A stretch of DNA of 64,000 bases from Dehalococcoidia bacterium (GCA_965222895.1 CBDCVB010000002.1:1349663-1413662), one strand, 5' to 3'. Positions 3,793-53,828 are shown, counted from the first letter of the stretch. Numbers and translations are program-made. Notes: a model not told the origin generated them from the sequence alone.

Positions 3793-5786
<1,994 letters not shown>

Positions 5787-5812
5787 TCCCACTGAATCCA
5801 GCGGGAATTGCA

Positions 5813-5847
5813 GCCGGGGCGGTCACGGCGACTGCCCCGGCGTTTTT
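5813..5847 (+). terminator. rho-independent terminator after groEL
   Basis: GCCGGGGC (5813-5820), a 13-nt loop and GCCCCGGC (5834-5841), followed by GTTTTT. Confidence 0.7.
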
Positions 5848-6177
5848 AACGATGGTCGCCAACCGTGTCCGCAACACTTCAGGTTTGAGGGGAACCGGGT
5901 AATTGTAGGCACGGGAAGAGCTATTGAACCGGCGCTGCCGTCGCTCCAGGTAGCGTTTATCCGCCACCCTTGACACGAGGGCTCTCGTCAAGTTCAGCTC
6001 ACCAAGTTTTACGTTTGAGTTGCGGGGTACCGCACGTACTTGACGCCGCTTACCACCTTGCCACTGGTCTGCGCTCTGCAGGGCCCGGCAGAAACGGGGA
6101 TCAGCCTCGGTTGTCGGGACAGCAGGCAGTTGTCCGCACCGACCACGATCAGGGCCAATCAAACAAGGAGGAAACCC

Positions 6178-32987: not shown

Positions 32988-33146
32988 GCGTACCCGCTTT
33001 AATCTGTCATTGCGAGGAGCGTCCGCTCATCCCGAGCTCGTCGAGGGAGGTGGCAATCTCGATGAGCCTGACCACGCGTAGACGAGCCGGCGTTGCTACG
33101 ACAACGGGATTGTCACGCTACGCTCGCAATGACAAAGTGGGTACGC
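32988..33146. repeat. MITE-like dispersed repeat, copy B (159 bp)
   Basis: Terminal inverted repeats GCGTACCCGCTTTAATCTGTCATTGCGAGG (left) and CTCGCAATGACAAAGTGGGTACGC (right). The interior aligns with the reverse complement of 12219-12427. Spurious ORFs through both copies read ..CHCEE(R/S)P(L/V)IPSSSR(E/D)VAIS... Confidence 0.85.
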
Positions 33147-44841: not shown

Positions 44842-44870
44842 GAGATTGCCACGCTGCGCTCGCAATGACA
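44842..44870. repeat. solo unit of the MITE-like repeat, copy C
   Basis: GAGATTGCCACGCTGCGCTCGCAATGACA matches the internal unit GAGATTGCCACG..CTCGCAATGACA of copy A, in the same orientation. Confidence 0.6.
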
Positions 44871-44992: not shown

Positions 44993-46111
44993 ATGGACTT
45001 TGGACTATTTAACACTTGGAACGCGTTATATGAGGGGGGCAAGGTTCCCTGGGACGCTGAATATAGCGGAGGGAAGCTCCTTGAGGAAGAGGCTTACGTT
45101 CAGAACTGGGCAGAGATTGACGCGGTAGAGCAGATGGGGTGGGACTACGTCTGGCTCGGGGGAGGACACTTCTCCAAGCAGGCGAGCATGGATCCCCAGG
45201 TCCTGATGCTATCCGCCGTGATAGCGGCCCGCACCGAAAGGATCAAAATTGGGTCATCCATCCACCGGCCGGTGATGAAACAGGCGGGTGAGACGGTGTC
45301 TGCATCAGCGCTTCCGCACGAGAGATATGGGTTCGACAACCTGATGATGGAGGACCCCATCCAGACCGCGGAGCAGGTCGCCATTGTTGACCAAATCAGC
45401 AAAGGCCGCTTCATTTACGGCGCCGGCGGGCGCACGCGTGGCTCCGATACGCGTCGCGAGCAGTTTTTCGAATACTTGGAAGTTATGAAGCAGCTTTGGA
45501 CCGAGGATCAGTTCTCCGGGTTCGAAGGCAAGTATTACAACTACCCGGCATTCTACGAGCCGTACCTGGCCATCCCCAAGCCCTACCAGAAGCCCTACCC
45601 GGCCATGCTGTTGCCAGTGGACAGCCAGGAAAGCTTCGTACCCATGGGAGAGCAGGGCTATCGCATCGCGGTGGGCGCGGGCAGCTCACCCCACAACCTC
45701 CGCGGAACCACGGTTCTGATTGAGGACGTGAAGCGCTACAAGCAGGCCTGGCGGGATGCCGGACACCCCGGCGAACCCACCACCGTGGTTCGCATACCGA
45801 CGCTGGTAGCCGACACGAAGGAAGAGGCCACACGCGAAGTTGACGCACTGATGAGTCTGGCCAGGCGGTATTACTCGGGCCGGGTGGGTATCGGGAGCAC
45901 CGATGCCGGCGCGGCGAGCCCAGATGCTACTGAGGAAGTAAACCTGTTTGGCACACCCGAGGAAGTGGTCGACAAGATCGAAGTCCTCCGCGAGGACTTC
46001 GGCACCGACGAGATCATGTTCGAGGTCAACTGGACTTCATCGGTGCCACGGGACGTGGTGATGAACACCATGCGAATCCTCACCGACAAGGTAATTCCGA
46101 AGTTCAAGTAA
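44993..46111 (+). CDS. LLM-class (luciferase-like) flavin/F420-dependent oxidoreductase
   Basis: MDFGLFNTWN..AEIDAVEQMGWDYVWLGGGHFS..VLMLSAVIAARTERIKIGSSIHRP..GRFIYGAGGR... Confidence 0.8.
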   Translation: MDFGLFNTWNALYEGGKVPWDAEYSGGKLLEEEAYVQNWAEIDAVEQMGWDYVWLGGGHFSKQASMDPQVLMLSAVIAARTERIKIGSSIHRPVMKQAGETVSASALPHERYGFDNLMMEDPIQTAEQVAIVDQISKGRFIYGAGGRTRGSDTRREQFFEYLEVMKQLWTEDQFSGFEGKYYNYPAFYEPYLAIPKPYQKPYPAMLLPVDSQESFVPMGEQGYRIAVGAGSSPHNLRGTTVLIEDVKRYKQAWRDAGHPGEPTTVVRIPTLVADTKEEATREVDALMSLARRYYSGRVGIGSTDAGAASPDATEEVNLFGTPEEVVDKIEVLREDFGTDEIMFEVNWTSSVPRDVVMNTMRILTDKVIPKFK

Positions 46112-46290: not shown

Positions 46291-47261
46291 ATGGTGAATT
46301 TGGGGGCGATTGAAAAGGTTGACCTGCGGGAGGTTTGGCCGAACGAGGCGTCGGACTTTACTCCGTGGCTATGCGATAACCTGGACAAATTGGGCGCTGC
46401 CCTGGGGCTGGATTTGGAGCTGCAATCACCGGAAGCCCCGGTGGGCGCGTTTTCGCTTGACGTGCTGGCGCACGACCTGGGGAGCAACCGGCCGGTAATC
46501 ATCGAGAATCAATTGGAGGCAACCGACCACGACCATCTTGGGAAACTGCTTACCTACGCCGCCGGCTACGATGCTTATGCCGTCGTCTGGCTGACGCGGG
46601 AATTTCGGGATGAGCACCGGCAGGCGCTCGACTGGCTGAACCAGCGTACCGGAGACGACACCCAATTTTTCGGCGTAGTAGTCGAGGCCTGGAAAATCGA
46701 CGAATCTCGGCCGGCGCCACATTTCAGGCCGGTGGCTATGCCGAATGAATGGCAAAAGCGGACAGCCACTGAATCGGCAAAAAACAGTTTCGGTAATGTT
46801 TCCGAGAGGGGGGAACGCTATCGCGCGTTCTTTCAGAGTCTTATGGACACGTTGCGCGAGAAGCATCGTTTCACCAACGCCCGTAAAGGACAGCCGCAAA
46901 GTTGGTACAGTTTCAGTTCCGGGTATTCTGGGGTTGCCTACGGAGCGTCATTTTCGAGGGATGGAAAACCACTGCGTACATTGACATTGCCCGCCGAGAC
47001 ACTGCTAGCCGAGACGAAGAGTGGAATAAGCGGCTGTTCGATAGATTGGCGCAACGCACGGAATGTATCCAATCACAGTTTTCGGAAAAGTTGGTATGGG
47101 ATTACGTTGAAAACCGTTCGGTCTGCTACATCATGGTCGAACGCGATGGGCAAATTATCGATGACCAGGAGACGTTGAGCGAAATTCAGGAATGGATGGT
47201 GAAGCAGTTGCTGGCCTTCAAGCGCGTTTTTGGGCCGCATTTGGCGGAGTTGGTAAAGTAG
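46291..47261 (+). pseudogene. PD-(D/E)xK nuclease-like / DUF4268 protein gene, split by a 1-nt frameshift at an A-run
   Basis: ORF 46264..47178 (..FSLDVLAHD..VIIENQLEATDHDHLGKLLTYAAG..) switches to ORF 46902..47261 (..KTTAYIDIARRD..EEWNKRLFDRLAQRTECIQSQFSEKLVWDY..). Adding one A to the run at 46965-46968 restores ..ASFSRDGKTTAYIDI... Confidence 0.7.
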
Positions 47262-47311
47262 TGGGTGATACACTGGCAATTGTCAGCAACCATCATGCGA
47301 GGTGATTGGGT

Positions 47312-47698
47312 ATGGGAACATTCAACGTGGAATTGCGAATCGGCGCGCTTGATTTTTCGGCGTGGGAGACGGTTAGCGCACTGGCAGATACAGGTGCCAT
47401 ATATTCCATGGCGCCGGCCAGCCTGTTGCGTCGGTTGGGAGTGGAACCGGAGGAATCGGTGGAATTTGAACTCGCCGGCGGTGAGATCGTCCAATACGAA
47501 ACGGGGTATGCAGCCTTCGCCGTAATGGACAGGCTCGGCCGGGCACGGGTCATTTTTGGCCCGGATGGCGAATACCTGATGGGAGCAACTACATTGGAAG
47601 ACCTGGCGCTGATGGTCGATCCGGTGAACTATCGCCTGATTCCCACGAGACATTTGCTGAAACGGGAGTTTCCTACCAACGACTCTGAACCCGGTTAG
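47312..47698 (+). CDS. retropepsin-like (clan AA) aspartic protease, copy 1
   Basis: MGTFNVELRIG..VSALADTGAIYSMAPASLL..GEYLMGATTLEDLALMVDPVNYRLIP carries a DTG active-site motif. GAGGTGA lies 6 nt before ATG 47312. Confidence 0.7.
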   Translation: MGTFNVELRIGALDFSAWETVSALADTGAIYSMAPASLLRRLGVEPEESVEFELAGGEIVQYETGYAAFAVMDRLGRARVIFGPDGEYLMGATTLEDLALMVDPVNYRLIPTRHLLKREFPTNDSEPG

Positions 47699-47742
47699 AT
47701 TGCTGATGCGAAACATAGATTAACGATGCTTATAGATTAAAG

Positions 47743-48441
47743 ATGACTATTGAAGTTGGTGAATACGACGCAGCGCTGGCGCTGGCTTATGAAGCAGGGT
47801 GGACTGATGGGTTGCCAATCGTGCCGCCTACTGCCGAGCGGGTGCGGGCGTTTCTGGATGTGTCGGGTCGGTCGGCGCTGGAACTGGTTGGGGAGATACC
47901 GCCCCGCGGCGGGCGGGCCACGGTGGAGAAGCTGGCGACCAACGCGGTGATGGCGGGGTGTCTGTCGGAGTATTTTCCGGTAGTGATTGCCGCGATTGAG
48001 GCGCTGCTACTGCCGCGGTTCAACTTGGCATCGGTGCAATGTTCGACGCATATTGCTACACCTTTAGTGGTGGTGAACGGGCCGATTGCGCGGGAACTGG
48101 AGATGAATGGCGCCGGCAACTGTTTCGGGCAGGGCAACCGGGCTAACGCAACCATCGGGCGCGCGGTCAAGCTGGCGCTGACCAATCTGGGCGGCGCGCT
48201 GCCGGGCGACGAAGACCGCGCCACGTTCGGACACCCGGGCAAGTACACGTACTGCATTGCTGAAAACGAGGTGGAGAACCCCTGGGAGCCGTATCACGTG
48301 GAACACGGCTACCGCCCCAATGAGTCGGTGGTGACGGTGCATCCGGCGGAAGCGCCCCACAACCTGAACAACCACGGAGTAGAGCAGTTGATGGCCTTCA
48401 AGCGGGTGTTTGGCCCGCATTTAGCGGAGTTGGTGAAGTAG
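47743..48441 (+). CDS. truncated paralogue of gene X fused to a DUF4268-derived C-terminal tail (chimeric product of the duplication)
   Basis: Residues 8-213 are almost identical to ORF 48870..49898. After ..PHNLNNHG it continues VEQLMAFKRVFGPHLAELVK, which matches the end of the DUF4268 gene (..VKQLLAFKRVFGPHLAELVK). No obvious SD. Confidence 0.55.
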   Translation: MTIEVGEYDAALALAYEAGWTDGLPIVPPTAERVRAFLDVSGRSALELVGEIPPRGGRATVEKLATNAVMAGCLSEYFPVVIAAIEALLLPRFNLASVQCSTHIATPLVVVNGPIARELEMNGAGNCFGQGNRANATIGRAVKLALTNLGGALPGDEDRATFGHPGKYTYCIAENEVENPWEPYHVEHGYRPNESVVTVHPAEAPHNLNNHGVEQLMAFKRVFGPHLAELVK

Positions 48442-48492
48442 CGGGAGATGACCTCTGCAAGCGCCAACCTTCATAACCAGGAGGCAATCGGT

Positions 48493-48873
48493 ATGGGCAT
48501 TTTTAGCGTTGAGCTGACGGTGAGGAACCGCGATACCCTGGTGGGTGAGACGGTGACGGCAGTGGTTGATACCGCAGCAACGATTTCGGTTATGCCGGTC
48601 AGCTTGCTGAATCGGCTGGGCATCTCGCCGGCCAGGACACGCCGGTTTCGCCTTGCCAACGACCAGACAATAGAGTACCAAACCGGAATGGCGCTGTTTG
48701 CAACCGCCGGCAGGGACGGGGAAGCCAGCGTAGCTTTCGGGCCGGAAGACCGCTACCTGATGGGCGCAACCACCATTGAGGAACTGACATTCGTCGTTGA
48801 CCCGATACATAAGCGGCTGATTCCCGAGGATATGCTGCTGCTGCGCAGCCGGACAGAGAATGATGACAGATGA
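48493..48873 (+). CDS. retropepsin-like (clan AA) aspartic protease, copy 2 (DTA variant)
   Basis: MGIFSVELTVRN..VTAVVDTAATISVMPVSLL..DRYLMGATTIEELTFVVDPIHKRLIP. AGGAGG lies 8 nt before ATG 48493. Its stop overlaps the start of the next gene (ATGA 48870-48873). Confidence 0.7.
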   Translation: MGIFSVELTVRNRDTLVGETVTAVVDTAATISVMPVSLLNRLGISPARTRRFRLANDQTIEYQTGMALFATAGRDGEASVAFGPEDRYLMGATTIEELTFVVDPIHKRLIPEDMLLLRSRTENDDR

Positions 48874-49898
48874 CAATGGATAGCCACTACGACGCAGCGC
48901 TGGCGCTGGCTTATGAAGCAGGGTGGACTGACGGGTTGCCCATTGTGCCGCCTACTGCCGAGCGGGTGCGGGCGTTTCTGGATGTGTCGGGTAGGTCGGC
49001 GCTGGAACTGGTTGGGGAAATACCGCCCCGCGGCGGACGGGCCACGGTGGAGAAGCTGGCGACCAACGCAGTGATGGCGGGGTGTCTGCCGGAGTATTTC
49101 CCGGTGGTGATTGCCGCGATTGAGGCGCTGCTGCTGCCCCGGTTCAACCTGGCATCGGTGCAATGTTCGACTCACATTGCTACGCCGCTAGTGGTGGTCA
49201 ATGGGCCGATTGCGCGGGAACTGGAGATGAATGGCGAAGGCAACTGTTTCGGGCAGGGCAACCGGGCCAACGCAACCATCGGGCGGGCGGTCAAGCTGGC
49301 GCTGACCAATTTGGGCGGCGCGCTGCCGGGCGACGAAGACCGCGCTACGTTCGGACACCCGGGCAAGTACACGTACTGCATTGCTGAGAACGAGGTGGAG
49401 AACCCCTGGGAGCCGTATCACGTGGAACACGGCTACGGTCCCGATGAGTCGGTGGTGACGGTGCATCCGGCGGAAGCGCCCCACAACCTGAACAACCACG
49501 GAGCCGACAATCCCAGGGACCTGCTGACCACATTTGCGATGTCGATGGCGATACCAGGCTGCAACAACATCCACGTGATGGGCGACGTGCTGCTGGTGCT
49601 GGGGCCGGAGCACGCTGACATCATTGCCAGCGCCGGCTGGAGCAAGAATGACGTGCGGTCGTACCTGTACGAACTGGCGCGCCAGCCTCTATCCGTCCTG
49701 AAACTGGGCGGCATCCACGGGCGTCATGCCCACCGCAACACGCTGTGGCCGCGCTGGATCGACCGCAACGACGATGACGCCATGGTTCCGGTGGTGCGCC
49801 GTGCGGAGGATATTCACATTATGGTTGCCGGTGGGCCGGGCCGGCATTCGTTGTACATACCGGGCTGGGGTTCGCGGATTACGTCGGCTGCGGTTTAA
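48870..49898 (+). CDS. conserved-looking hypothetical protein X (342 aa), family not recognised
   Basis: ..AGWTDGLPIVPPTAERVRAFLD..EKLATNAVMAGCLPEYFPVVIAAIEALL..VQCSTHIATPLVVVNGPIARELEMNGEGNCFGQGNRANATIGRAVKLALTNLGG... It is translationally coupled to protease copy 2. Confidence 0.7.
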   Translation: MTMDSHYDAALALAYEAGWTDGLPIVPPTAERVRAFLDVSGRSALELVGEIPPRGGRATVEKLATNAVMAGCLPEYFPVVIAAIEALLLPRFNLASVQCSTHIATPLVVVNGPIARELEMNGEGNCFGQGNRANATIGRAVKLALTNLGGALPGDEDRATFGHPGKYTYCIAENEVENPWEPYHVEHGYGPDESVVTVHPAEAPHNLNNHGADNPRDLLTTFAMSMAIPGCNNIHVMGDVLLVLGPEHADIIASAGWSKNDVRSYLYELARQPLSVLKLGGIHGRHAHRNTLWPRWIDRNDDDAMVPVVRRAEDIHIMVAGGPGRHSLYIPGWGSRITSAAV

Positions 49899-49960
49899 TT
49901 TGCCCGGTTTGATTAACATGGATGAACAGGATGAAAAGGATACTGTTGGGAGGAGATTGG

Positions 49961-50539
49961 ATGATGAGCGATAGCAGAGTTGATTTGCAGGCTCGCATCG
50001 CCGCGTTGGGATTGCTGGATCCCACCGACCGGCAGGAAGCGCCGAAGCGACGCGCGGCGACACCGCTGGAGACATTGGAAGGACGAACCGGCGGGTTCCT
50101 GGACAATCACAAAGGCAATGCCGACGTAATACTGGAAGCCATTCGCCGGGAGTTGTCCGCCGGGTACGGCATGACCGATTCGGTGGTGCTGGCCAAGTGG
50201 GTGTTTTCGGCCCCGGCGGCGCCGGAGATTGTCGACGAACTGGCGCAGTGCGATTTCGTGGTTACGGCGGTGGGGGATTGAGGGAGCTGTGTGGCGCGCA
50301 GTTTGCGCGATGCGGTGGAACTGGAAGACCGGGGTGTGCGGACGGTGGTAGTGCATACCGAGGCATTCTGCTCGGCAGCCGAGCAGCACATCGTATCGTT
50401 GGGCCGACCCGATTACGAAGGTTCGGTGTACATTAAACACCCGGTGGCGGCGCTGGACGAGGCAGCAATCAACCAACGCGTCGAACCCGTGGTGGGTGAC
50501 ATCGTGTCCGCGCTGTTGGGGCACCGGCGGGAGGATTGA
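49961..50539 (+). CDS. probable selenoprotein with a U-G-S-C motif (in-frame UGA at 50279-50281)
   Basis: ORFs 49922..50281 and 50291..50539 share one frame. Read through, the sequence is ..VVTAVGD-U-GSCVARSLRDAVELEDRGVRTVVVHTEAF... GGGAGGAG lies 5 nt before ATG 49961, and there is no SD before 50291. Confidence 0.6.
50295..50309 (+). other. candidate SECIS apical hairpin
   Basis: CGCGCA-GUU-UGCGCG is a perfect 6-bp stem starting 14 nt after the UGA. Confidence 0.3.
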
Positions 50540-50563
50540 TCCGGGCGGGCCGGCGGTGGAATG

Positions 50564-51754
<1,191 letters not shown>

Positions 51755-51833
51755 TTACTCGCAGTGTCCACCCGAACGCAATGCAGCGATTCAGAGGCAA
51801 GTGTTGTCGGAGGCACGTGTTGAGGGAAAGGTG

Positions 51834-52010
51834 ATGTACCTGGTTTTGTCCGATTTCCTGGTGGCGCTGAGCAGCAACGCTGGCATCTGGGCGGTTTCGG
51901 TAGTGGCGTCGATGGCAGTCACGGCGGTGGCATTGTTCATATTCTGGGATCTGGTTGGGCGGGCCGTGTCATTGACGGCGCGGGTTTGCGGCTCAATTCG
52001 GCGCGGCTGA
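51834..52010 (+). CDS. small hydrophobic protein (58 aa)
   Basis: MYLVLSDFLVALSSNAGIWAVSVVASMAVTAVALFIFWDLVG.. has two hydrophobic spans. GAGGGAAAGG lies upstream, and the gene sits directly before the TauE gene. Confidence 0.35.
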   Translation: MYLVLSDFLVALSSNAGIWAVSVVASMAVTAVALFIFWDLVGRAVSLTARVCGSIRRG

Positions 52011-52028
52011 CCCGGCAGACGAATTCCA

Positions 52029-53117
52029 GTGTATTTTCCCATCTCCGACGTTGTAATCTCGCCGCTGTTGCTGGCGTTGCTGGGGATGATAGTCGGCACG
52101 ATGACCGGCTTTTTTGGCGTCGGCGGCGGGTTCCTCATCACGGGCGGTTTGCTGGTGCTGGGCGTGCCCACCATCTACGCGGTGGGCACCGGACTGCTGA
52201 TGGTAATGGGCACGGCAATCACCAGTACCTTGCGTCACCGGCGGCTGGGCAACGTGGATTTCCGCCTGGCGATTCTCATTGTTTGCGGCACCGTGCCGGG
52301 CGGGCTGATTGCGGAGCGGGTGAACGCCGTGCTGGAGCAGGCCGGCCTGGGTGGGTTGGTCATCGGGCTGGTATATTTTGTGCTGCTGCTGGGGTTGGGT
52401 TCGTGGATGACCGGCAGCTGGTTGCGGAGACTCAATTGCAAACCAGCTGGCGCTCAGGTTGGCGGCATCGCGCAACGGCTGCACAACTTGCGGGTTGGCC
52501 CCGCAGCGATTTGGGTGCCCGGCAAGGGGCGGGTTTCGACCCGGATTCCGTTTCCAAATTCCGGCATCGCTGAAATGTCGGCGTTCGTTCCGATAACCGC
52601 CGGTTTCGCCATTGGTTTCATCGCCCTGTTGTTGGGAGCCGGCGGCGGGTTCATCCTGATGCCGTTTCTGGTGTACGGGCTGGGCGTGCCCACCGCGGTG
52701 GCCATCGGAACCGACCTGTTTCAAATTATTATCACGGGCACACTGGGAGCATTTTTGTATTCGCTGGGAGGCCACGTTGACCCGGTAATCGCAATCATCA
52801 TGTTTGCGTCGGCCTCGGTGGGAACGCAGTTGGGCGCGCTGGCGACGCGATTCGTCAACGCCAGCCGGATAATGGGCTTGTTCGGGGTAACGGTACTGAA
52901 CGCCGGCATTGCCATCGGGTTGCGCCAGTTGGCTCAGCTGCTCGACTCCGCGGTGTTGGCACAGGTTGGGCAGGCGTTGCTGCTGGGAGCATCGGGTGCG
53001 GTAGCCGTGGCCATTCTGTGTATGTTGGCCGTGTCTGCCTTCAGGCAGCTGCGGCGGGGACGGCGGCTGGCGATGCTGCGGCACAATCGGGCGGCGAGCC
53101 GTGGATTTAGAAGTTGA
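52029..53117 (+). CDS. TauE/SafE family sulfite/anion exporter (DUF81)
   Basis: ..GMIVGTMTGFFGVGGGFLITGGLLVLGVP.. and, in the second half, ..LLLGAGGGFILMPFLVYGLGVP... Confidence 0.8.
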   Translation: MYFPISDVVISPLLLALLGMIVGTMTGFFGVGGGFLITGGLLVLGVPTIYAVGTGLLMVMGTAITSTLRHRRLGNVDFRLAILIVCGTVPGGLIAERVNAVLEQAGLGGLVIGLVYFVLLLGLGSWMTGSWLRRLNCKPAGAQVGGIAQRLHNLRVGPAAIWVPGKGRVSTRIPFPNSGIAEMSAFVPITAGFAIGFIALLLGAGGGFILMPFLVYGLGVPTAVAIGTDLFQIIITGTLGAFLYSLGGHVDPVIAIIMFASASVGTQLGALATRFVNASRIMGLFGVTVLNAGIAIGLRQLAQLLDSAVLAQVGQALLLGASGAVAVAILCMLAVSAFRQLRRGRRLAMLRHNRAASRGFRS

Positions 53118-53156
53118 CGGATGGCTTGAGTTAGACTAGACTAGTCCTTGAAACTT

Positions 53157-53200
53157 CCCCGCCGTCCGGGTTTAGGCCCGCACTGGCGGGCGTTTTTTTT
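53157..53200 (+). terminator. rho-independent terminator after the TauE gene
   Basis: CCCGCC..GGCGGG outer stem with an inner CGGG/CCCG stem, followed by C and T8 (53192-53200). Confidence 0.75.
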
Positions 53201-53210
53201 GAGAGGATTT

Positions 53211-53828
53211 ATGGCACACCGCGTCGTGATTTTCGTGGATTACCAGAATGTTTATATGCGCGCCCGCGACGCATTTCATAATCCCCTTGCAGACCCGTAC
53301 TGGATGGGACAAATAAATCCTACTGAATTAGGCAGACACATTGTCGGAGAAGATGCGACTTCGGAACGGGATTTGTATGGGGTGCGCATATATCGGGGAA
53401 TGCCGAATAACGAACGAGACCCCAAAGGTTATAGAGCTGCCCGCCGTCAGATTGCGGCATGGGAGCGATAGCCCTTGGTAACGGTGACTACCAGGCAGCT
53501 CCGTTACCCTCGAAATTACCCGGATGCCAAAGCTGAGGAGAAGGGTATAGATGTTCAATTAGCCCTGGATTTTGTGATGATGGCGGTACGAAACGAGTAC
53601 GAAGTCGGGGTTCTCATGTCCAATGATACGGACTTGCGTCCCGCTCTCGAGGAGGTCATTAAACTCGGTTCCCATACTGTTGAAGTCGCTACTTGGGAAC
53701 CGCGAGAAGGCCGTCCCAGATACCACCTCCGTCTTGCACAACGCCGGGTGAACACCCAACCATACTGTCACTGGATTAACTTGGATGCTTATAACAGAAT
53801 CAGCGACGATACCAACTACGCCCTCTGA
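53211..53828 (+). pseudogene. NYN-domain (LabA-like) protein gene interrupted by one in-frame TAG (53469-53471)
   Basis: MAHRVVIFVDYQNVYMRARDAF.. then stop, then ..EEKGIDVQLALDFVMMAVRNEYEVGVLMSNDTDLRPALEEV.. in the same frame (ORFs 53148..53471 and 53475..53828). The segment is visibly AT-richer than its surroundings. Confidence 0.65.

Follow-up and report, generated by a model that had tools for sequence, protein, structure and literature searches.

Partial tandem duplication can create chimeric genes, as in bacterial fusions at duplication junctions, and bacterial paralogues such as tufA and tufB can evolve in concert by gene conversion. For the orphan immunity-gene arrays in type VI secretion clusters of Vibrio cholerae and for the C-terminal displacement at Rhs loci, one-sided homologous recombination (homology-facilitated illegitimate recombination, HFIR, or "displacement") has been proposed to leave scars that consist of cassettes and gene remnants (PMC5361080, citing de Vries & Wackernagel 2002; Prudhomme et al. 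2002). Here, we describe a locus with features of all of these in a 64,000-nt stretch of a Dehalococcoidia bacterium (GCA_965222895.1, CBDCVB010000002.1:1349663-1413662), which is a metagenome-assembled genome (MAG) sequence placed by genome search among SAR202-type Dehalococcoidia MAGs and is called the window in the following. A block composed of the tail of a DUF4268-family gene (D), a small retropepsin-like protease gene (P1 or P2) and the 5' part of a conserved uncharacterised gene (X) is present twice in this window, with the first copy of X ending as a truncated chimera (X1) and the second one being full length (X2).

We consider this arrangement to be probably the young scar of a joining of two protease-cassette haplotypes at the edge of a hypervariable island, with X1 as a by-product. 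From the comparisons presented below, we infer a route of the HFIR type and a lack of function of X1.

Structure of the tandem and integrity of the junction

All coordinates refer to the whole window and to the plus strand unless stated otherwise, and gene calls are based on a map of open reading frames (ORFs) together with profile searches (Pfam, NCBIfam). A repeat search and MAFFT alignment locate the two copies of the block head to tail at 47203-48379 and 48383-49503, which bears out the tandem of about 1.15 kb that had been recognised in an initial annotation of the sequence. Similarity between the copies depends on the segment: the D tail (47203-47269 vs. 48383-48449) is 88% identical over 67 nt and the X segment (47764-48379 vs. 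48888-49503) is 95.1% identical, whereas the protease segment between these repeats reaches only about 55-60% nucleotide identity. X1 follows X through Gly212 (48376-48378; Gly211 in X2 numbering) and then continues with VEQLMAFKRVFGPHLAELVK and a stop codon, corresponding to D codons 300-319. The switch into a copy of the D C-terminus had therefore been positioned correctly at 48379/48380 in the initial annotation, and the 5' part of X in the block, previously given as about 213 codons, comprises exactly 212. The G at 48379 is common to X2 (GCC), D (GTG) and X1 (GTA), resulting in 1 nt of microhomology at the join. Hence, the locus has the geometry of a tandem duplication, namely adjacent head-to-tail copies and one novel junction that connects the end of one unit to the start of the next.

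The two X copies differ at 30 of 616 nt, affecting 24 codons synonymously and four codons non-synonymously (S/P, A/E, R/G, N/D); an earlier count by hand had arrived at exactly these numbers. According to the Nei-Gojobori method, this corresponds to a non-synonymous divergence (dN) of 0.010, a synonymous divergence (dS) of 0.177 and a ratio of the two (omega) of 0.057. For the 19-codon D tail, the two copies show a dS of 0.57 and an omega of 0.08.

As the window stems from a metagenome-assembled genome and related strains or species share the same samples (visible as loose ends and multiple haplotypes), the assembler could have joined or collapsed two strain haplotypes. We give this explanation practically no credence, and it is effectively refuted by several observations. 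An independent assembly, which was reached by a search with P1 (ENA ERZ25072794 contig_5, here L087; L-numbers denote loci or genomes throughout), is 98.6% identical at the nucleotide level over window positions 46312-50418, shows the same gene order D-P1-X1-P2-X2-UGSC (UGSC being a selenoprotein gene downstream of X2) and contains an intact X1 of 232 aa with three amino acid differences. Four public runs (labelled X1-X4, which refers to runs and not to genes), stemming from two or more studies, show the identical join in their Logan contigs as well; in each run, a single contig covers 48350-48917, extending from the final 30 nt of X across the junction and P2 into the start of X2. The depth of this junction contig is 474x, 485x, 28x and 2.8x in the four runs, compared to 458x and 460x for the D-P1 contig and 472x for the contig with the X2 3' end and UGSC. 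Since the depth of the junction contig equals that of the flanking contigs, with equal values for unit 1, unit 2 and the unique flanks (458x, 474x and 472x), the junction is single-copy and no assembly artefact. Moreover, a join with an overlap of 1 nt is not one that an assembler would create. A joining of strain variants by the assembler, a concern already raised in the initial annotation, is thus ruled out by L087 and the four runs. A 626x haplotype in run X1 might suggest that the X1 gene equals X2 in the dominant strain; this idea was discarded as the haplotype resembles the sister genome L007 and may belong to another co-occurring organism.

Protease haplotypes and the origin of the tandem

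P1 and P2 share 48% of their amino acids, in agreement with the previous estimate of about half of the residues, and differ in the active-site region, as P1 has ADTGAI and P2 VDTAAT. The catalytic D-T/S-G motif is consequently present in P1 only (DTG), whereas P2 has DTA without the canonical glycine. Both proteins exceed the cut-off of 24.3 for PF13650 (Asp_protease_2; scores of 24.8 for P1 and 30.1 for P2), and their matches to TIGR03698 stay below the cut-off of that model. With a dN of 0.54, the dS between the two genes is saturated (2.65). Each type has its own orthologues: the 128-aa P1 is 97%, 86% and 85% identical to its counterparts, likewise of 128 aa, in L087, L088 and L089 (omega 0.05-0.06), and P2 shares 89% of its amino acids with the protease that directly precedes X in L005 and has DTA as well (omega 0.10). 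To judge from these values, P1 and P2 are ancient cassette types, each with orthologues under purifying selection. Out of the two earlier suggestions, fast divergence or different origins of the proteases, it is therefore the different origins that hold.

The protease genes of this region belong to interchangeable ancient types (P1, P2, Pa, Pb and others) which are 46-57% identical to each other and occur in arrays of one to four at one chromosomal hotspot, as observed in the window, L001, L005, L007, L008 and L088-L090. In L007, the single protease gene upstream of X (5595-5964) is read in two frames, due to a frameshift or an assembly error. The stretch between the flanking core gene, encoding either a luciferase-like monooxygenase (LLM) or an MR_MLE-family protein, and the conserved X-UGSC-tgt genes is a hypervariable hotspot, which we call defence-island-like because D belongs to the candidate defence family PDC-S11.

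For a comparison with related genomes, as already proposed in the initial annotation, relatives were mapped by tblastn and further loci were added (Table 1). This revealed single-unit loci with P1-X (L088, L089) and with P2-X (L005), and two units with the chimera in the window and L087. The first unit of the window (47181-48377; D tail, P1, spacer and X1) is colinear with the single unit D'-P1-X of L088 (76%), and the second unit with its downstream region (48399-53635; the second D tail Dt', P2, X2 and onward) is colinear with the single unit of L005 (75%). The two units thus look like two haplotypes of one locus placed in tandem, for which a single illegitimate join is needed.

Table 1. Gene organisation at the protease-cassette hotspot in the window and in related loci (:: marks the join).
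Locus	Organisation
Window, L087	D-P1-X1::Dt'-P2-X2
L007 (sister; X 97% aa identity, flanks 92-96% nt identity)	LLM-P(b-type)-X; no D, no X1
L088	D'-P1-X (full length)
L089	P1-X (full length), P1 directly upstream of X
L005	D'-P2-X-UGSC-tgt (P2 89% aa identity)
L008	D-Pa-X
L009, L010, L012	P...D-X
L011	D'-X
L001	P-P-D-Pa-(X' remnant)::(D-tail remnant)-Pb-X

In the scenario that we favour, a D-P1-X and a D-P2-X haplotype would have been brought into tandem in a recent ancestor shared by L087 and the window strain, with one illegitimate join at the 1-nt microhomology linking X codon 212 of the D-P1-X haplotype to D codon 300 of the D-P2-X haplotype. As the most likely route, we propose a one-sided homologous recombination (HFIR/"displacement") with the anchor in or downstream of X and the illegitimate join at the other end. 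The join would have been in frame by chance, giving rise to the 232-aa X1 that ends at the stop codon of D itself. An illegitimate join with zero to few nucleotides of microhomology, as expected for HFIR, is found here with 1 nt, and so are the inserted block of a different haplotype and the heterogeneous arrays (P1 and P2 with their own orthologues; the pair Pa/Pb in L001). Regarding the crossover in the anchor, identity to L007 is 96-98% upstream and a patchy 91-97% downstream, with no clear end of a donor tract and no donor genome identified.

It is the narrow distribution of the junction from which we infer the direction of events. The junction is absent from L007-L012, no second X occurs in any of L008-L012, and a search of JGI metagenome contigs with a degenerate junction pattern gave 0 matches. 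In the 28-member protein cluster to which X1 belongs in a collection of 15 billion proteins, only the proteins of the window and L087 are chimeric among the 15 members listed, and the other short members listed are frameshift pieces of full-length X and not chimeras. Found only in the window, in L087 and in near-identical strains within the runs (at least 98.5% identity), the junction is young.

The geometry of the locus is also exactly that of an in-place tandem duplication, in which a single unit of D tail, protease and X 5' part would have been doubled by illegitimate sister-strand exchange; one protease together with the first seven X codons would later have been swapped for an allelic cassette via D/X homology, and X1 and X2 would have been kept alike by conversion. 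This would fit with X1 and X2 being closest to each other (95.1% vs. 93.1% to L007) and with the signs of conversion described in the next section, and the flanking homology would ease a cassette replacement; however, it requires two events where one suffices. In addition, the divergence expected to be equal along a block duplicated in place is uneven at neutral sites: dS amounts to 0.18 in X, to three times as much in the D tail (0.57) and to saturation in the protease genes (2.65), and can therefore not date from one event. Each unit, from the D tail through the spacer into the N-terminal codons of X, matches a different haplotype (L088/L089 for the first and L005 for the second unit), and two units with one and the same protease type were not seen in any genome. 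Taken together, we regard an in-place duplication as unlikely, though as the more serious of the competitors. Of the tandem segmental duplication put forward in the initial annotation, the head-to-tail repeat and the in-frame chimera stand, while the duplication of one unit in place does not, since the units match different haplotypes.

A comparable scar exists in L001, where the X remnant (X') keeps about codons 4-50 and is frameshifted, and the D-tail remnant lacks a stop codon and seems to begin about four codons further upstream (GWM) than that of the window. The L001 scar is analogous to but independent of the one in the window, and its by-product has decayed, which suggests a recurrent process. 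A common origin of both arrays from the same ancient duplication, with homogenisation by conversion in the window, was rejected because both protease types differ, X' breaks near codon 46-50 and the D tail seems to start at a different codon.

Fragments of neighbouring genes in front of protease genes were also noted elsewhere, comprising the decayed X start and D tail in L001 (4885-5042) and a 26-codon C-terminal MR_MLE fragment in L005 (6611-6688). The left breakpoints in the window and in L001 both fall within the last 20-24 codons of D, which could be due to a breakpoint hotspot or to the need to keep the protease promoter.

Selection on the chimeric gene X1

With an omega of 0.057, the ratio for X1 and X2 is far below 1, and the initial annotation had read the low level of amino acid changes as purifying selection on both copies, including the truncated one. 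While the value itself stands, this conclusion does not follow for the chimera. Within the 616 nt of X1, the window and L087 differ at 21 positions (18 synonymous, three non-synonymous), 17 of which fall into a patch of 114 nt (47965-48078), whereas the matching 616 nt of X2 contain two differences between the same two genomes, none of them synonymous. Such a ratio of 18 to 0 synonymous changes (P about 4e-6) is impossible under clock-like mutation at equal rates. Likewise, the X1-derived changes are clustered, with 8-9 of 14 located in 48009-48078 (P about 0.002). As the peptide encoded by the patch, EYFPVVIAAIEALLLPRFNLASVQCSTHIATPLVVVNG, is the best conserved one in the family, only synonymous differences would be expected there for any X allele. 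Several further haplotypes of the patch are present in the runs.

Signs of exchange between the copies are seen as well. At site 47861 (V40A), both copies are the same within each strain and different between the strains, and X1 of L087 carries X2-derived states at 47976, 47982 and 48048. A substitution shared within the genome and mosaic clustered tracts are the hallmarks of gene conversion, here at few sites, and the divergence between the window and L087 is mosaic along the locus. The clustering and the inconsistent rates suggest that the locus is a recombination mosaic and that the synonymous excess of X1 was imported as tracts of functional alleles. Three contributions would account for the low X1/X2 ratio: i) both copies would descend from functional full-length alleles, ii) about half of the differences would be changes in the functional X2, and iii) later recombination or gene conversion would have brought functional X tracts into X1.

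Outside the patch, constraint appears relaxed: the X1 lineage has three synonymous changes (47913, 48144, 48162) and 3-4 non-synonymous ones, namely I52L (in L087), G191R, D193N and P75S, the latter at a proline position with a conservation of at least 90% in the family. The resulting omega of about 0.36-0.48 is compatible with neutrality (P = 0.2-0.3); an omega of 0.06 fits poorly (P = 0.01 with and 0.04 without P75S) and an omega of 0.10 fits marginally (P = 0.05 and 0.13, respectively). For comparison, the X2 lineage has ten synonymous and two non-synonymous changes outside the patch (omega about 0.07). An intact X1 is expected by chance, since the junction is young and, in simulations of neutral copies with 15 mutations, 65-79% remained free of stop codons. 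The ORF is retained only in strains that are at least 98.5% identical, and not across diverged lineages.

X itself is a protein of about 345 aa. Searches with it gave at least 7,996 homologues and no Pfam domain, no assignment to a family in Pfam or NCBIfam and no sequence match in the PDB. Among the close SAR202 loci examined, all those with X encode it directly upstream of UGSC. The AlphaFold2 (AF2) model of X has a pLDDT of 87.7, and Cys72 and Cys170 are invariant. Foldseek returned only weak matches to class I fumarate hydratase and Toblerone-fold hydrolases (TM below 0.3), on which we build no claim. In X1, the X residues 212-342 are missing, among them the invariant A270, R271, P307, G321, G322 and G334.

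A number of points weigh against the reading of X1 as a non-functional by-product of a haplotype join. Polarised with L007, the X1 branch shows 11 synonymous and three non-synonymous changes, and 15 random mutations would give three or fewer non-synonymous ones with a P of about 1e-4, making neutral point mutation very unlikely. No donor of the X1 patch was found among 90 loci; the sequence closest to it is X2 itself, which mismatches at 13 of 126 nt. Outside the patch, the numbers of changes are low, and a comparison of the X1 with the X2 lineage by Fisher's test yields P = 0.13-0.27. Both assemblies have an intact X1 ORF, and the four runs show no indels in X1. The D-tail copy is biased towards synonymous changes (five synonymous, two non-synonymous) and identical between the strains (0/60 differences between the window and L087). 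According to the AF2 model, the cut in X1 lies in a loop between the strand 205-208 and the helix 215-226, and the N-terminal fragment may thus be folded. As for the haplotypes, recombination between direct repeats in an old two-unit ancestor could also yield single-unit P1-X and P2-X loci.

Some of these points (the changes on the X1 branch, the intact ORF, the position of the cut in a loop and the identical tail in both strains), together with the X1-X2 omega and the native P1-X spacer and start codon that X1 inherited in the same form as in L088, could favour X1::D-tail as a functional new gene under purifying selection, e.g. a stand-alone N-terminal module or a regulator of X/UGSC. Nevertheless, the synonymous excess sits in the one 114-nt patch and is inconsistent in time with X2, the changes outside it are three synonymous and 3-4 non-synonymous ones including P75S, and the young age of the junction could account for the intact ORF. 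Furthermore, the analogous fragment in L001 is a frameshifted and deleted remnant, and X1 lacks 131 residues with invariant positions among them. In metatranscriptome runs, none of which stems from the window strain, only X and UGSC from relatives with about 95% identity were found, and nothing on D, P1, the junction or P2. We therefore hold a selected function of X1 to be distinctly improbable and favour the origin of X1 as a by-product of the joining.

This locus can serve as a worked example that a low pairwise dN/dS between a truncated and a full-length paralogue does not show selection on the fragment, because such a signal may be inherited or imported where populations recombine. A functional chimera, which is unlikely on present evidence, would represent a datable birth of a new gene in an uncultured bacterium.

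Neighbouring genes and comparison with known systems

The features of the locus are compiled in Table 2. A PADLOC search gave no match for P1, P2, X1 or X2, and Rfam and tRNA scans of the window found no RNA genes.

Table 2. Features of the tandem and its surroundings in the window.
Feature	Coordinates	Strand	Basis
LLM, luciferase-like monooxygenase	44993-46111	+	profile search
D, DUF4268-family gene, PADLOC candidate defence gene PDC-S11	46291..47261	+	PF14088
D-tail copy A (last 20 codons, stop codon, 8 nt)	47203..47269	+	direct repeat family D2
P1, small retropepsin-like aspartic protease, 128 aa, DTG, P1-type cassette	47312..47698	+	PF13650
X1, chimeric 232-aa ORF (X codons 1-212 in frame with D codons 300-319 and D stop)	47743..48441	+	
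Almost purely synonymous hypervariable patch within X1, read as at least one recombination tract	47965..48078	+	
Illegitimate junction, 1 nt microhomology (G at 48379)	48378..48380	+	X1/X2/D sequence comparison
Dt', D-tail copy B (X1 C-terminus and stop, also start of unit 2)	48379..48449	+	
P2, small retropepsin-like protease, 126 aa, ATG at 48490, DTA, P2-type cassette	48490..48873	+	PF13650
X2, full-length X, 342 aa	48870..49898	+	conserved uncharacterised family
UGSC-family selenoprotein gene, in-frame TGA at 50280-50282	49964..50539	+	PF24696, NF041046
tgt	downstream of UGSC gene	opposite	

The PF14088 matches of D fall into two frames of the window gene. A 1-nt frameshift splits this gene immediately after 46964, where an A-run is one A short (GGAAAACC; 46960-46970). 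L087 and the sequencing runs X1-X3 have an extra A after 46964 that restores DGKTTAYIDI, and the frameshift in the window is either a private inactivating mutation or a homopolymer assembly error. An intact orthologue in L001 matches PDC-S11 over residues 2-314 in PADLOC (E 5e-111). In L087, a 2.9-kb insertion (L087 2137-5000; window 46312-46319) disrupts D close to the 5' end of the gene. It carries two N6_N4 methyltransferase ORFs and an IS1595-family transposase, and its flanks overlap by 8 nt in what looks like a target-site duplication.

Downstream of the tandem, the stop codon of P2 overlaps the start of X2 (ATGA), and X2 is followed by UGSC, a member of one of the most abundant marine selenoprotein families (PMC2398784). 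With the TGA translated as Cys/Sec, the UGSC gene matches PF24696 (E 1.4e-43) and NF041046; GSC follows the TGA. Its N-terminal part (49964-50279) forms a second divergent patch between the window and L087, with 12 differences in 316 nt against a background of 0.3-1.5%. The runs X1-X4 are one base short at 49971 compared to the window, which leaves the start codon and frame of UGSC uncertain at this position. In L087, an IS66 transposase is located between UGSC and tgt. Besides, a palindromic short repeat, GAGATTGCCACGCTGCGCTCGCAATGAC, occurs in intergenic DNA at 44842-44869 and 33106-33133. A 36-nt stretch with this repeat has a perfect match in L001, at a position that is not orthologous, and L007 and L087 contain the core of the repeat as well. 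The repeat looks like a REP-like (repetitive extragenic palindromic) element, without a match in Rfam.

In a broader context, our data document a small hypervariable island beside the X-UGSC pair in sponge-associated SAR202 genomes, in which the turnover of cassettes leaves gene-fragment scars. Two further-reaching interpretations would go beyond what has been described. X1 could be a very young functional chimera, composed of the N-terminal two-thirds of a UGSC-partner protein and a helix borrowed from a defence gene and kept by selection. More broadly, the protease cassettes could travel with about 60-80 nt of the upstream gene tail and build displacement arrays at a fixed hotspot, which would be a type of cassette system that has yet to be described for proteins of this class. 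We consider the prospect of such readings to be slim.

Among the known systems, the locus resembles HFIR/displacement arrays in that i) a conserved gene beside the variable region could serve as homologous anchor, ii) the other end is joined illegitimately with minimal microhomology and iii) heterogeneous cassettes alternate with leftover fragments of neighbouring genes (X' and D tail in the window, L087 and L001; MR_MLE tail in L005). This heterogeneity of the arrays is not explained by simple duplication. In contrast to these arrays, the cassettes here encode retropepsin-like proteases beside a DUF4268/PDC-S11 gene instead of effector-immunity pairs, the leftover fragment is long (212 codons) and in frame, and the anchor, the donor and the route of DNA uptake are putative. 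With duplication-junction fusions, the locus has in common the head-to-tail repeat and the in-frame fusion of the 5' part of one gene to the 3' end of the upstream gene, but the central genes P1 and P2 are not copies of each other (48% aa identity, saturated dS) and the divergence is grossly uneven. As in the concerted evolution of tufA and tufB, X1 and X2 resemble each other more than either resembles the orthologue of the sister genome, and they show one substitution shared within the strain as well as mosaic tracts. Here, however, one partner is truncated, much of the exchange seems to have taken place with third alleles, as seen from X1-specific states that are absent from X2, and the sites are few. 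In conclusion, the kind of event is known, and the instance described here is new.

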